DNA from: Myxococcota bacterium
GTDB taxonomy: Bacteria; Myxococcota_A; UBA9160; UBA4427
Direction of reading: 5' to 3'
Assembly (NCBI GenBank): GCA_965250285.1
Contig: OZ252299.1
Coordinates: 3,872,001-3,936,000, forward strand
DNA: 64,000 bases
Within the stretch, counting starts at the first letter, position 1; every line of letters begins with the position of its first letter. Below, piece by piece: positions 1-5,440 of the stretch. A model generated the notes under the pieces. It was not told the origin of the DNA and made no database searches. It saw nothing but the letters and a program-made list of their open reading frames with translations. The translations under genes were made by a program, and so were the position numbers.

Positions 1-1319
1 AAGAGCCCCGGGCCGCATCCCACGACGCGCGCGACGCGGCCGGCGCAACCGACCCGGCCACCCCTTCCCTCGCGCTCGCCCTGCTCTTCGCGCTGATCGG
101 CGGACTCGTGCTGAACCTCATGCCGTGCGTTCTGCCCGTGCTCGCGATCAAGGTCTTCGGTGTCGCCGAGATCGCCCACGCCGATCGCGCCACGTTGGTC
201 CGGCACGGTGTCGCCTACCTCGCCGGCGTCCTCGCTTCGATGGCCGCGCTGGCCGGCGTCGTCGTCGCGCTGCGCGCCGCCGGCACCTCGGTCGGGTGGG
301 GCTTCCAGTTCCAGGAGCCGGTCTTTCTCGCGGCGATCTGCACCCTGCTCGTCGTCTTCGCGATGAACCTCTTCGGCGTGTTCGAGGTGACCTGGCAGCC
401 TTCGGGGCCGGCCAGCGCGCCAGCGGTCGGGCCACCGACGACGCAGCGAAGCTTCTTCGAGGGCACCCTCGCCGTGGTCCTCGCCACGCCGTGTACGGCC
501 CCGTTTCTCGGTACGGCCGTCGGCTTCGCCTTCGCCGGCTCGACGACGGTGATCTTCGCGATCTTCCTCGCGATCGGCTTCGGTCTGGCTGCGCCGTATG
601 TGCTCATCACCTTCGTCCCGGGGCTCGCGCGATTCGTGCCGCGACCGGGCGCCTGGATGCTGCGCGTGCGCAGCGTGCTCGGCTTCACGCTCCTCGCCGC
701 GGCCGCATGGCTGCTCTGGGTCATGGGCCGGGCCGTCGGTGTCGATGGTCAGGGGCTGCTGCTCGCCTACCTCGTCGGGGTGGCCTTCCTCGTCTGGGTC
801 TTCGGCACGCTCCAGGCGGGACCACGCACCACCGCAGCCCGCGTCGCCGCTGCCTCGATCGCCGCCTTCGTCGTCGCGGCCCTCGCGTTGTTGCCGCTCG
901 ACCCCGCTCCGGTCGAAGCGGTCGAGGTCGCCGACGCGAGCGCAGGCGGCCCAGCAGGCACCTGGTCGCGCTGGGCGCCGACGGCCATCGATCGCGAGCG
1001 CGCGGCGGGGCGCCCGGTCTTCGTCGAGTTCACGGCCGACTGGTGCATCACGTGCAAGGTCAACGAGTCGGTGGTCCTGTCGACCGACGCCGTGCGTCAA
1101 GAGCTGACGCGACTCGACTTTGCCACGTTCAAGGCCGACTGGACGCTCCGCGACGAAGAGATCGGCCGAGCGCTCGCCGAATGGGGTCGTGCGGGTGTTC
1201 CGATGTACCTCGTCTATCCGGCCGACACCGCGCAGCGTCCGATGCTGCTGCCCGAGCTGCTCACCGTCGAGACCACCGTCGAGGCCCTGCGCGCCGCCGG
1301 ACAGGGCGAAGGGGTCTGA
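1..1319 (+). CDS. dsbD: Thiol:disulfide interchange protein DsbD/ScsB type (5'-truncated by window edge)
   Basis: Frame open from base 3. Membrane-domain Cys motifs LNLMPCVLPV and LATPCTAPFLG, multiple TM helices, and a C-terminal thioredoxin domain FTADWCITCKVNE...GVPMY. Confidence 0.92.
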   Translation, partial: EPRAASHDARDAAGATDPATPSLALALLFALIGGLVLNLMPCVLPVLAIKVFGVAEIAHADRATLVRHGVAYLAGVLASMAALAGVVVALRAAGTSVGWGFQFQEPVFLAAICTLLVVFAMNLFGVFEVTWQPSGPASAPAVGPPTTQRSFFEGTLAVVLATPCTAPFLGTAVGFAFAGSTTVIFAIFLAIGFGLAAPYVLITFVPGLARFVPRPGAWMLRVRSVLGFTLLAAAAWLLWVMGRAVGVDGQGLLLAYLVGVAFLVWVFGTLQAGPRTTAARVAAASIAAFVVAALALLPLDPAPVEAVEVADASAGGPAGTWSRWAPTAIDRERAAGRPVFVEFTADWCITCKVNESVVLSTDAVRQELTRLDFATFKADWTLRDEEIGRALAEWGRAGVPMYLVYPADTAQRPMLLPELLTVETTVEALRAAGQGEGV

Positions 1320-1334
1320 GCTTGCCCCGAACAG

Positions 1335-1374
1335 TGAGAGCTGTACTCTCACCTACTTGAGAGTCCAACTCTCA
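1335..1374. promoter_or_regulatory. Tandem palindromic operator, two copies of TGAGAG-N5-CTCTCA
   Basis: TGAGAGCTGTACTCTCA (1335-1351) and TGAGAGTCCAACTCTCA (1358-1374), intergenic upstream of the CDS at 1429. The same pair recurs at 8353-8394. Confidence 0.8.
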
Positions 1375-1428
1375 ATCATGGTCGGCACGCTGCGCAGCGG
1401 GTCGCCGGCCGACCGAGGAGGAATCGCG

Positions 1429-2190
1429 ATGAAATCGATGACGCTGGGGACGAAGCTCGGCTTCGGTGCGTTGGCCCTGGCCCTGATCTCGCTCGTCGCG
1501 TGGCAGTACCACATTCGCACGGTGGACATCCCCGAGAACCGGACGCTCTTCGTGATCGCGTTCGTGACCGCCGTCGCGCTCGGCATCGCCGCTTTCGTGA
1601 AGGGCGCGGGCTGGGCGGGGCGAATCGCGGCGGTGTTCGCGATCTTCATCGGGACGCTCTTGCCGTTCACGATCTCGGTCAGTCGACAGGATCTCGCGCC
1701 CGGCGCGATCTCGGTGGGCGACACCCTGCCGGCCTTCGCATCGGTCGACGACCGAGGCGAGCCCTTCGACTCGGAGCGCTTGAGAGGCCACCCCGTCCTC
1801 ATCAAGTTCTTTCGAGCCCACTGGTGACCCTACTGTGTCGCCGAGTTACGGCGATGGGAAGAGTTGAGGCCCGAGTTCGATCGGCGCGACGTGCAGGTTC
1901 TGACCGTCAGCACCGACCACCCGGAAGAGATTCGTGAAGGCCGAACGCGTCATGGCTTGCAGGCCATCATGCTCTCCGACCCCGAACTCGTGGTGACCGA
2001 TGCATTCGGGCTGCGCAATACGGGCTTCCACTCGGCGCCGCCGAGCGACGACACCGAGGCGTTGCCCGTACCGGCTTCGATTCTCGTCGATGCCGACGGC
2101 ACCGTACTGTGGATGGACATCGCCGAGAACTACCAACGGCGATCGCCCCCCTCGGTCGTCCTCGCGGCACTGCAGCGGTACCTCGACTGA
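1429..2190 (+). CDS. Membrane-anchored peroxiredoxin-like (AhpC/TSA, thioredoxin-fold) selenoprotein, UxxC motif, 253 aa, Sec at codon 133
   Basis: GAGGAGG RBS and ATG at 1429. ORFs 1120..1827 and 1864..2190 share a frame. Reading through TGA 1825-1827 gives IKFFRAHW-U-PYCVAELRRW, matching the family motif FyRgxWCPYC. C-terminal LPVPASILVDADG...YQRR is typical. Three N-terminal TM helices. Confidence 0.9.
1837..1855 (+). promoter_or_regulatory. Candidate bacterial SECIS hairpin
   Basis: Stem GTCGCCG/CGGCGAT with loop AGTTA. There are 16 nt between the UGA and the apical loop, and the loop has G at position 2 followed by U. CCC(1828-30)/GGG(1856-58) can form a lower stem. Confidence 0.75.
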
Positions 2191-2250: not shown

Positions 2251-3108
2251 ATGAAGATCGGACTGATCCCCATCAACGTCACCGTCGCCAGCGTCGACGC
2301 CATGGTCGCGCTCGCGCAGAAGGCCGAATCGATCGGCCTCGAGTCGGTCTGGACGTTCGAGCACGCCATCGTGCCCACCGACTACAGCTCGAAGTACCCC
2401 TACAGCGCGGACGGCAAGATGGGGGTCACGCCCGAGACGAACTTCGTCGATCCACTCATCGCGCTGTCGGTCGTCGCCCAGGCCACCGAGACGCTCCGCC
2501 TCGGTACCGGGGTCAACATCCTCCCGCAGACGAACCCGCTGATGCTCGCCAAGCAGGCGGCCAGCCTCGACTTCGTGTCGAAGGGTCGCTTCATGCTCGG
2601 CGTCGGCATCGGTTGGTTGAAAGAAGAGTTCGAAGCCATGGGGACGCCCTTCGAGAAGCGCGGCGCCCGCTTCGACGAGTACATCGAGGCGATGCGCAAG
2701 ATCTGGTCGGGCGACACGGTCGAGCACCAGAGCGAGCACCTCAACTGGACCGGCTTCAAGAGCCATCCGCTGCCGATCCAGAGCCCCTTCCCGGTCGTGA
2801 TCGGCGGTTCGAAGGGCAAGGTCTTCGAGCGCACGGCGCGCTTCGGCAACGGCTGGTTCGCACCGACGGTCAGCGCCGACCAGCTGAAGCCGATGCTCGC
2901 GCCGCTGAGCGAAGCGTGCGCGGCTGTGGGACGCGACCCGAGCGAGATCGAGATCTCGGCGATGTGGGTGCCGGCCATGGGGCTCGACAGCCTGCGCCAA
3001 TACGAAGACCTCGGCGTCTCGCGCCTGATCGTGCCGGGCCAGACGCTCGGCGGCGATCCCATGGCCGGGCTCGACGGCCTCGCCGACGACGTGCTCGCCA
3101 AGCTCTGA
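2251..3108 (+). CDS. LLM-class (luciferase-like, probably F420- or FMN-dependent) oxidoreductase
   Basis: ESVWTFEH, DPLIALS, LGTGVNILP, LAKQAASLD, GRFMLGVGIGWLKEEF; AGGAG RBS. Confidence 0.9.
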   Translation: MKIGLIPINVTVASVDAMVALAQKAESIGLESVWTFEHAIVPTDYSSKYPYSADGKMGVTPETNFVDPLIALSVVAQATETLRLGTGVNILPQTNPLMLAKQAASLDFVSKGRFMLGVGIGWLKEEFEAMGTPFEKRGARFDEYIEAMRKIWSGDTVEHQSEHLNWTGFKSHPLPIQSPFPVVIGGSKGKVFERTARFGNGWFAPTVSADQLKPMLAPLSEACAAVGRDPSEIEISAMWVPAMGLDSLRQYEDLGVSRLIVPGQTLGGDPMAGLDGLADDVLAKL

Positions 3109-3208: not shown

Positions 3209-5440
3209 ATGATCAAGAAGGCTCTGCTGGTCGTCGCCGTTCTGCTGCTGGCGTTCGCAGCGTGGCTCTACGCCGGCGCGAACGGATGGCTCGGTGAGAT
3301 CGAAGCGCCCGGTGAGATCCACGCCGGCGCCCGCCCCGCTGACACGGTGGCCGCGTACGCCGATGCGCAGACCGAGACGGCGCGCCTGCTCGGTGCGCCG
3401 CCCGACAAGCAGATCCTCTTCGGCGACTTCCACGTCCACACGACGTTCAGCTTCGACGCGTTCTTGATGAATCTGCCGCTGGTGGGTGGGGCGGGCACCC
3501 ATCCTCCGGCCGATGCGTGCGACTTCGCGCGGTTCTGCTCGGCGCTCGACTTCTGGTCGATCAACGACCACGCCGAGAATCTGACCGCTGAGCTCTGGGA
3601 TCGCACGGTCGATTCGGTCCGCGAGTGCAACGCGGTCGCGGGTGATCCGGCGAACCCCGACCTGGTCACGTACCTCGGCTGGGAGTGGAGCCACATCGGC
3701 GACCGGCCCGAGAACCACTACGGACACAAGAACGTCGTGCTGCGCGGCCTGGCGGACGACGAGATCCCGACGCGGCCGATCGCTTCGCGCGGCCCCGCAA
3801 CGCGTTCGGGGCTGAACGTGCCTTTCGCGGCCCGCGCTGCGCTCGCCACGGCGGGTGGTCAGCGTGGCCGCGACTTCGTGAAGCTGATCGGCGAGGTCAG
3901 CGACGCCGACCGGTGTCCCGAGGGCGTGCCGGTGCGCGAGCTGCCCGACGACTGCCTCGAGTCGACGGCGACCCCCGAGGCGCTCTTCGCGAAGCTCGAT
4001 GACTGGGGCTTCGACTCGATCGTGATCCCGCACGGCACGTCGTGGGGCCTCTACACGCCCGCGGGCTCCGATTGGCGCAAGCAGCTGAAGGGACACGACC
4101 CGGCGCGGCAGACCCTCGTCGAGCTCTACTCGGGCCACGGCAACTCGGAGCAGCTGCCGAGCTGGCGACCCGTCGACATGGCGGCGGACGGCTCGCTCAC
4201 GTGCCCGGCGCCGAGCGACGGCTACCTGCCGAGCTGCTGGCGCGCCGGTGAGCTGATCGAAGCGCGCTGCAAAGAGCTGGGTGAGAGCGACGCCGAGTGC
4301 GCCCGCCGCGCCGCCGACGCCCGCGCCAACTACGTCGCCGCGTTCCAGGCCGGCTGGAAGACCCTGCCCGGCTACGAGCCGAATGACTGGGTCGACGCGG
4401 GCCAGGCGCCGCAGAGCATGTTCCAACCCGCCTTCAACTATCGGCCCCGGGGCTCGGCGCAGTACATGCTGGCGATCCGCGACTTCAGCGACCCGGCCAA
4501 GCCCAAGGGCTTCGACTTCGGGTTCATCGGCTCGAGCGACACCCACACGGCACGCGGCGGCACTGGCTACAAGGAGCAGTACCGCGGCGAGATGACCGAC
4601 GGGCGGGGCAGGCAGGGCGACGCACAGACCGACGGCGGCGGCCTGTTCGGTTCGAGCAACGACGCCGACGCCCCGGTCGACGCGTCGGTGCCGTTCGTCA
4701 GCAGCGGCGAGAGCCCGCTGCAGCTCTTCGAGATCGAGCGCGGCTCGGCCTACTTCGTGACCGGCGGCCTGGTGGCCGTCCATTCCCCTGGCCGCGATCG
4801 CGACTCGATCTGGAACGCGCTGCAGAAGAAGGAGGTGTACGCGACGAGCGGTCGGCGCACGCTCCTCTGGTTCGACCTGATCGACGGCGGCGCAGCGATG
4901 CCCATGGGCTCGACGACGAGCCGCAGCGACAACCCGCGCTTTCGCGTGCGCGCGATGGGCTCGTTCGAGCAAGCACCGGGCTGCCCCGATCACGTCGTCG
5001 ATGCCCTCGGCGCGGATCGGGTCGATCACGTCTGCATGGGCGAGTGCTACAACCCGAGCACCGAGCGACGCCCAATCACCCGCATCGAGGTCGTGCGCAT
5101 CCGACCCCAGATCGCCGAAGACGAACCGGTCGACGGGCTCGTCGAAGATCCGTGGCGGGTGCTGCCCTGCCCGGCCGACGGATCGGGCTGCGTGGTCGAG
5201 TTCGCCGACGCCGAGTTCGCGGGCTCGAGCCGCGACGCCGTGTACTACGCGCGCGCGATCGAGGCGCCGGACGAGCTGATCCACGGCCGCGACCAGCTCG
5301 GCTGCGAGTACGATGCCGAGGGACGATGCATCGCGATCACCCCGTGCGGCGCGAACACGCCCGTCGCAGACGATTGCCTGGGCGTCGCCGAGCCCCGCGC
5401 GTGGTCGTCGCCGATCTTCGTCCACCACGCGGGTTCGTAA
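3209..5440 (+). CDS. DUF3604-family secreted PHP-like metallohydrolase
   Basis: N-terminal signal/anchor. GDFHVHT, NDHAE, GWEWS, IPHG, SSDTH, GGLVAV, EVYATSG, and C-terminal EPRAWSSPI. Confidence 0.85.
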   Translation: MIKKALLVVAVLLLAFAAWLYAGANGWLGEIEAPGEIHAGARPADTVAAYADAQTETARLLGAPPDKQILFGDFHVHTTFSFDAFLMNLPLVGGAGTHPPADACDFARFCSALDFWSINDHAENLTAELWDRTVDSVRECNAVAGDPANPDLVTYLGWEWSHIGDRPENHYGHKNVVLRGLADDEIPTRPIASRGPATRSGLNVPFAARAALATAGGQRGRDFVKLIGEVSDADRCPEGVPVRELPDDCLESTATPEALFAKLDDWGFDSIVIPHGTSWGLYTPAGSDWRKQLKGHDPARQTLVELYSGHGNSEQLPSWRPVDMAADGSLTCPAPSDGYLPSCWRAGELIEARCKELGESDAECARRAADARANYVAAFQAGWKTLPGYEPNDWVDAGQAPQSMFQPAFNYRPRGSAQYMLAIRDFSDPAKPKGFDFGFIGSSDTHTARGGTGYKEQYRGEMTDGRGRQGDAQTDGGGLFGSSNDADAPVDASVPFVSSGESPLQLFEIERGSAYFVTGGLVAVHSPGRDRDSIWNALQKKEVYATSGRRTLLWFDLIDGGAAMPMGSTTSRSDNPRFRVRAMGSFEQAPGCPDHVVDALGADRVDHVCMGECYNPSTERRPITRIEVVRIRPQIAEDEPVDGLVEDPWRVLPCPADGSGCVVEFADAEFAGSSRDAVYYARAIEAPDELIHGRDQLGCEYDAEGRCIAITPCGANTPVADDCLGVAEPRAWSSPIFVHHAGS

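Follow-up and report, generated by a model that had tools for sequence, protein, structure and literature searches.

The window, by which we mean the whole 64,000-nucleotide stretch of myxobacterial DNA that was analysed, opens inside an scsB gene, which is followed on the same strand by a gene for a 253-residue protein with an in-frame TGA. Under translation table 11 this second gene appears as two open reading frames, 1120..1827 and 1864..2190, which lie in the same frame. When TGA is translated as selenocysteine (Sec, U), the frame is open; it has one TGA in its interior, at 1825-1827, and ends with the TGA at 2188-2190. Counted from ATG 1429, the active site lies in the context FFRAHW-U133-PYC; translation might instead start at ATG 1438. 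The read-through protein matches PF00578 with 83.1 bits (cut-off 26) over residues 96-228, a match that runs across the TGA. The two reading frames form one gene, as the original prediction had held. The locus is made up of the following features:

3..1319, + strand: 3' part of scsB, encoding a 772-residue DsbD-superfamily electron transporter, the likely electron donor (DsbD_N, DsbD_TM and Thioredoxin_7 above cut-off; Cys pairs; Lys mark; linkage)
1415..1421, + strand: Shine-Dalgarno-like GAGGAGG, 7 nt 5' of ATG 1429 (sequence)
1429..2190, + strand: selenoprotein gene, 253 residues, three membrane helices and a Prx-like domain (read-through frame, PF00578, family TGA, AlphaFold2)
1444..1677, + strand: three-helix membrane anchor, residues 6-30, 39-57 and 62-83, without a Pfam family (AlphaFold2, hydropathy)
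1696..2187, + strand: Prx-like thioredoxin-fold domain with U133-P-Y-C136 and invariant R129, P215 and R238 (PF00578, BCP/AhpE fold, invariant columns)
1825..1827, + strand: UGA selenocysteine codon (TGA conserved; homologues with Cys)
1837..1855, + strand: bacterial SECIS hairpin, stem 1837-1843/1849-1855, loop AGUUA 1844-1848 (fold, fit to the consensus of PMC13188914, frozen synonymous codons, compensatory changes)

Between positions 1200 and 2400 there was no Rfam match at E<=1, and a promoter or terminator consensus was not found at the locus. Downstream lie genes for an F420-dependent LLM oxidoreductase (2251-3108, TIGR03619 above cut-off) and a DUF3604 protein (3209-5440), neighbours that are not conserved. 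The LLM-oxidoreductase gene was considered as a partner and rejected: its cluster occurs in 4 of 120 loci, two of which belong to the clade that contains our gene (clade A, described below).

The TGA at 1825-1827 is almost certainly read as selenocysteine, judging by comparison across the family. In the column of U133, 118 of the 120 extracted loci carry TGA and the remaining two TGT (locus L042, a Cys form) and TGC, and the motif W-C-P-[YF]-C occurs in 85 of 97 database matches. Exactly one in-frame TGA is present in each of the 116 matches with E<=1e-25, which come from 96 of the 225 genomes of the class. The genome itself encodes selA, selB and selD above cut-offs together with tRNA-Sec(UCA), and of the 96 genomes that bear the family 93 have selA, the three others being assemblies that are 68-87% complete. 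Contigs from runs X1, X2 and X3 span position 1825 without a differing letter; all three runs belong to a single study, and X1 is possibly itself the source. The original prediction of a hidden selenoprotein with a UxxC active site, its TGA standing at the first Cys of the family motif, is thus borne out as W-U133-P-Y-C136, and the checks that it had proposed, on the homologues' column, the Sec genes and a possible assembly error, all turned out in its favour. In the genome's own SelD (G000:C1 ~5313100, minus strand; L010), the N-terminal motif contains a Cys and not a Sec.

The hairpin that follows the UGA (16 nt after it, 7 bp stem, loop AGUUA, -11.4 kcal/mol) agrees with the bSECIS model set out in PMC13188914, in whose text the loop lies 16-37 nt past the UGA, the stem has 4-16 bp, a G falls within the first two loop positions and the minimum free energy is at or below -7.5. 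Folding z-scores of 0.28 to -0.89 are uninformative, and the energy alone is ordinary. Support for the element comes instead from its codons, which are frozen among the TGA loci (n=109): Val is GTC in 108 of 108, Glu is GAG in 109 of 109, Leu is TTR in 109 of 109 against a background of 10%, and Arg is CGA in 109 of 109 against 12%. In two loci both sides of a base pair have been altered in a compensatory manner, and in the Cys form L042 the codon constraint is relaxed. Six distant TGA relatives (L144, L145 and L061-L064) have another N-terminal membrane region (WP-x-x-RD-x-PW, with an Arg-rich loop 2) and a hairpin that folds unlike the family SECIS.

It is extremely improbable that the TGA is a true stop or an error, or that it is decoded as Trp or Cys. 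The database entry for one homologue, P0063, does show Trp here, probably through the annotator's choice of code. Against this stand the conservation of both halves of the gene around the TGA, the complete Sec machinery, and the use of TGA as the ordinary stop of this gene and of neighbouring ones. On the conserved TGA, the frozen SECIS and the identical contigs of the three runs, we dismissed an assembly error, a pseudogene and a different genetic code as explanations.

In a sample of 401 genomes of the phylum, 35 had the membrane anchor, and every one of these belonged to this class. Named database records that contain the family come from Myxococcota, Polyangiaceae and Ca. Binatia MAGs, and truncated ones from Gammaproteobacteria MAGs. 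Among 150 database representatives, 88 stop exactly at the Trp preceding the Sec codon and 59 end short of the motif, which leaves 3 full-length Cys forms; the N-terminal half of our own gene is recorded as a complete 132-residue protein. Annotation pipelines do split the gene, as had been anticipated. In a quick tree the Binatia-type Cys forms make up one clade amid the Sec forms, and their Cys is for this reason probably derived. Sporadic Cys forms (P0003, P0004, P0005 and P0006) are also nested among Sec forms, two of them in clade A, which suggests repeated changes from Sec to Cys.

In the AlphaFold2 model (pLDDT 96), helices 6-30, 39-57 and 62-83 precede the thioredoxin-fold domain. Hydropathy agrees on three hydrophobic helices, and the predicted N-terminal membrane anchor is confirmed to this extent. 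No Pfam family matched the anchor in more than 6 of 67 members, the best E value being 1.4e-4. The nearest solved folds are the BCP/PrxQ and AhpE peroxiredoxins (3drn, 5id2 and 5enu; Z 21.5, rmsd 1.6, 146 aligned), and there is a further match to human prostamide/prostaglandin F synthase (Z 15.7, rmsd 2.5, 139 aligned); structure matches to the whole model span residues 79-253 at most. R129, H131, P215 and R238 are invariant in the family. Unlike in BCP/PrxQ and AhpE, the motif PxxxTxxC is replaced by RxxWUxxC, such that BCP YPKDNTPGC aligns with FRGHWCPYC of the family profile, and the invariant Pro215 occupies the column of the catalytic Arg of BCP, where it also aligns with a Pro of ResA. 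Taking the definition of a true peroxiredoxin by PxxxTxxC from the text of PMC3322552, we rejected this assignment for our protein. The absence of PxxxTxxC and the Pro in place of the Arg argue for a Prx-like reductase of the dithiol type, and we consider the protein to be probably such an enzyme and not a peroxidase. The earlier label of a peroxiredoxin-like protein holds for the scaffold, but the missing peroxiredoxin catalytic residues had gone unnoticed. By analogy with thioredoxin chemistry, Sec is likely to be the nucleophile and Cys136 the resolving residue. No NCBIfam model reached its cut-off; SelL_rel_redox (NF040769) scored 33.5 against 120 and WAxxUGC_long (NF041054) 27.2 against 300.

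A tree built on the soluble domain alone (in its careful version, on 68 of 149 rows) places the gene in clade A with support 100/98. For each protein we calculated a K/R bias by subtracting the Lys and Arg residues in loop 1 and in the linker that follows helix 3 from those in the N-terminus and loop 2. Nine loci that were distant or partial were left out, as were rows whose loops were truncated or that had no clear N-terminal Met (4 of 32 clade-A rows and 18 of 79 other Sec rows). In clade A the bias averages +1.5 (range 0 to +4), being positive in 23 of 28 rows and 0 in the other 5, whereas the other Sec forms average -5.0 (61 of 61 below 0) and the Cys forms -4.5 (82 of 82 below 0). By the positive-inside rule, the negative bias would put the catalytic domain of the non-A forms in the cytoplasm, a pattern found in 143 of 143 scored members outside clade A and overlooked in the original prediction. 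All 28 clade-A rows, versus 1 of 143 others, have Lys or Arg in the N-terminus as well as in loop 2, and loop 1 and the linker are poorer in these residues in clade A, with about two kept in loop 1. When acidic residues are counted as well, the net-charge bias is positive in all 28 clade-A rows. The soluble domain is also more acidic in clade A (-7.0 versus -1.3 and +3.2). From these charge patterns we expect that the clade-A protein faces outward in most of its molecules, which we regard as likely. The outward placement of the Sec domain had been proposed from the charges of this one protein; the clade-wide pattern and the scsB linkage described below speak for it, but the protein's own bias is just 0 to +1, and the argument as first made was thin.

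The genome carries both charge classes. A paralogue of the non-A class (G000:C1:2320385-2321122, minus strand) is 47% identical to the clade-A protein, and its model has the same three helices, so that the two have an equal number of spans while the bias of their classes is reversed in sign (+1.5 versus -5.0), the clade-A value being small. Both classes occur together in 17 of 31 clade-A genomes (one of these, G190, assigned through the identity of a fragment). At locus L025 (G006:C10:669-2534) a clade-A gene and a gene of the other class stand in tandem. A change from inward to outward is the direction favoured by the best tree, though it is not firm: an AU test did not reject the other forms as a single clade (p 0.31), and the distant outgroup is likewise Arg-rich in loop 2. 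The same genome holds six further Prx-like genes with W-TGA-P-x-C, at G000:C1 2490358(+), 4424434(+), 4544201(+), 2346508(-), 1311786(-) and 2320738(-). The plus-strand trio has an extra N-terminal domain and hydrophobic C-terminal helices, a second membrane-anchored architecture.

The upstream gene begins before the window, at G000:C1:3871001. In addition to its three domain matches, its product contains the Cys pairs CKIDC, PC..PC and WCITC, two Cys apiece in domains alpha, beta and gamma. The text of PMC3322552 gives a Lys at +8 of the first beta-domain Cys as the mark of ScsB; this Lys is present here (PCVLPVLAIK), as in 27 of 27 homologues examined. The identity of the gene as scsB had escaped the original prediction. 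Of the 26 clade-A loci that have 1 kb or more of upstream sequence, 18 have scsB directly upstream, versus 0 of 84 other loci, and the linkage persists in families f1, f9, f11 and f12. The scsB genes so linked group in a clade of their own (support 100), in which the four families are mixed, and by eye their groupings resemble the selenoprotein tree. The linkage may represent one ancestral event, and the 18 loci are thus not 18 tests. At eight metagenome loci of the clade-A type, two of them with less than 700 nt upstream, scsB was upstream in none; at one of the eight, L176, an scsB start lies directly downstream in a separate arrangement. This gene (L176:1791-2906) contains the ScsB alpha domain and the start of the first beta helix followed by unrelated sequence, and is truncated or mis-joined. 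Presence of scsB anywhere in the genome is a weak discriminator, as it occurs in 28 of the 31 genomes with clade A, 41 of the 65 with the other form only and 53 of the 129 without the family.

At other scsB genes, the position behind scsB is taken by a signal-peptide gene in 5 of 10 cases examined, and these we take to be TlpA-like or PrxL-like from their motifs. Exported clients encoded near scsB are described in PMC3322552. The linkage and this use of the position suggest that our protein is a direct ScsB client, an assignment that we hold to be reasonably plausible. A second scsB of the genome (G000:C1:5222455-5224638, minus strand; L149), 48-50% identical, is followed by a signal-peptide TlpA-like gene with WCPPC and a gene for a probable outer-membrane protein.

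The reading that we prefer, and consider moderately probable, is that of an envelope-facing Sec enzyme likely reduced by the adjacent ScsB. UGA would be decoded as Sec within a thioredoxin-type UxxC of a three-helix membrane protein. Electrons would pass from cytoplasmic thioredoxin to the beta, then the gamma and then the alpha domain of ScsB and on to the Se-S bond between U133 and C136, and the resulting selenolate, on the outer side of the inner membrane, would reduce disulfides or oxidised thiols and possibly peroxides as well. Clade A would be derived from an inward-facing form in which Lys and Arg moved out of loop 1 and the linker behind helix 3 into the N-terminus and loop 2, a shift that would invert the entire protein, while many cells would retain one copy of each form. 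As to the larger history, in which one selenoenzyme family in two opposite orientations arose when the gene was duplicated, flipped together with its 165-residue Sec domain and took a dedicated ScsB, the two-gene unit then spreading together, we see the chances as evenly balanced.

The main alternatives concern where the Sec domain faces. The selenoprotein could face the cytoplasm and be reduced there by thioredoxin, the charge shift being drift and the scsB linkage shared regulation or chance. Such an arrangement would suit the uniform inward pattern outside clade A, the two or so Lys or Arg residues that clade A retains in loop 1, and the lack of an adjacent scsB at 8 of 26 clade-A and 7 of 8 metagenome loci. 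We nevertheless find it unlikely, since basic residues were gained at the N-terminus and loop 2 in every scored clade-A row and lost from loop 1 and the linker, exported clients occupy the position behind scsB at other loci, and the linkage has been maintained over four families. Insertion of clade A in both directions, so as to serve both compartments, appears quite unlikely, given the uniformly positive net-charge bias and the inward-type copy that 17 of 31 clade-A genomes keep as well. To our knowledge the dual-topology proteins that have been listed also have no large soluble domain, a further point against it. Those listed in PMC3962082 have 3-4 spans, which is likewise counted against dual topology, and their bias of -2 to +1 is the point in its favour, as the clade-A values lie within or near this range.

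A different question is the substrate. At the same location the protein might act mainly as a selenium peroxidase on membrane lipid or other hydroperoxides, with R129, H131 and R238 standing in for the peroxiredoxin triad, an alternative that overlaps the preferred reading in all but the substrate and that we treat as possible but doubtful. The BCP/AhpE fold, the invariant basic residues, an anchor that would keep the site close to lipid and the match to prostamide/prostaglandin F synthase all point towards it. Against it are the replaced motif and the Pro at the Arg position, and the Prx-like ScsB client PrxL is reported in PMC3322552 to have undetectable peroxidase activity.

The gene is a member of a selenoprotein family that has been catalogued: Prx-like thiol:disulfide oxidoreductases with PF00578 and UxxC or UxxU are given in Table 1 of PMC13188914 and in PMC1088965. 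As in the proteins described in these sources, it has the PF00578 domain, a thioredoxin-like UxxC in place of TxxU, and an in-frame UGA with SECIS, and the present genes may already be included under 'Prx-like' in BSepDB. It differs from the catalogued proteins in the three-helix anchor without a Pfam family, the two classes of charge bias and the link to scsB; the words 'transmembrane' and 'periplasm' do not occur in the main text of PMC13188914. The Caulobacter crescentus ScsB clients TlpA, PrxL, PprX and ScsC, as presented in PMC3322552, are similar in having a thioredoxin fold encoded beside scsB and predicted to lie outside the cytoplasm, and PrxL is similar in its Prx-like scaffold without the peroxidase residues. 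By contrast with these clients, our protein has a Sec nucleophile, a three-helix anchor instead of a signal peptide and close paralogues that are predicted to face the cytoplasm.

A precedent for the two charge classes is found in the membrane homologues YdgE/YdgF and YdgQ/YdgL, which have equal numbers of spans and an opposite positive-charge bias (PMC3962082). The inverted homologues that we found described are small pairs that form anti-parallel heterodimers, whereas the two forms of the present family are mostly unlinked and have an odd number of spans, and here the flip would carry a catalytic domain of 165 residues into a different compartment, with a different electron donor. The literature that we searched, mostly open-access main text, contained no description of the anchor, the two charge classes, the scsB link or the flip. 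What appears to be new is the division of the family by its membrane charge bias and the tie of clade A to scsB.

Should the larger history of two opposite orientations be true, both faces of the inner membrane would be served by the same selenoenzyme in many cells, among them this one. A real flip would be a natural inversion of topology that moved an enzyme to a new compartment and a new electron donor. Independently of its orientation, the gene adds a widespread selenoprotein subfamily where databases hold a 128-residue hypothetical membrane protein. The presence of two 47%-identical paralogues in one genome makes the flip idea testable, and likewise the question of what selenium buys in an oxidising envelope.
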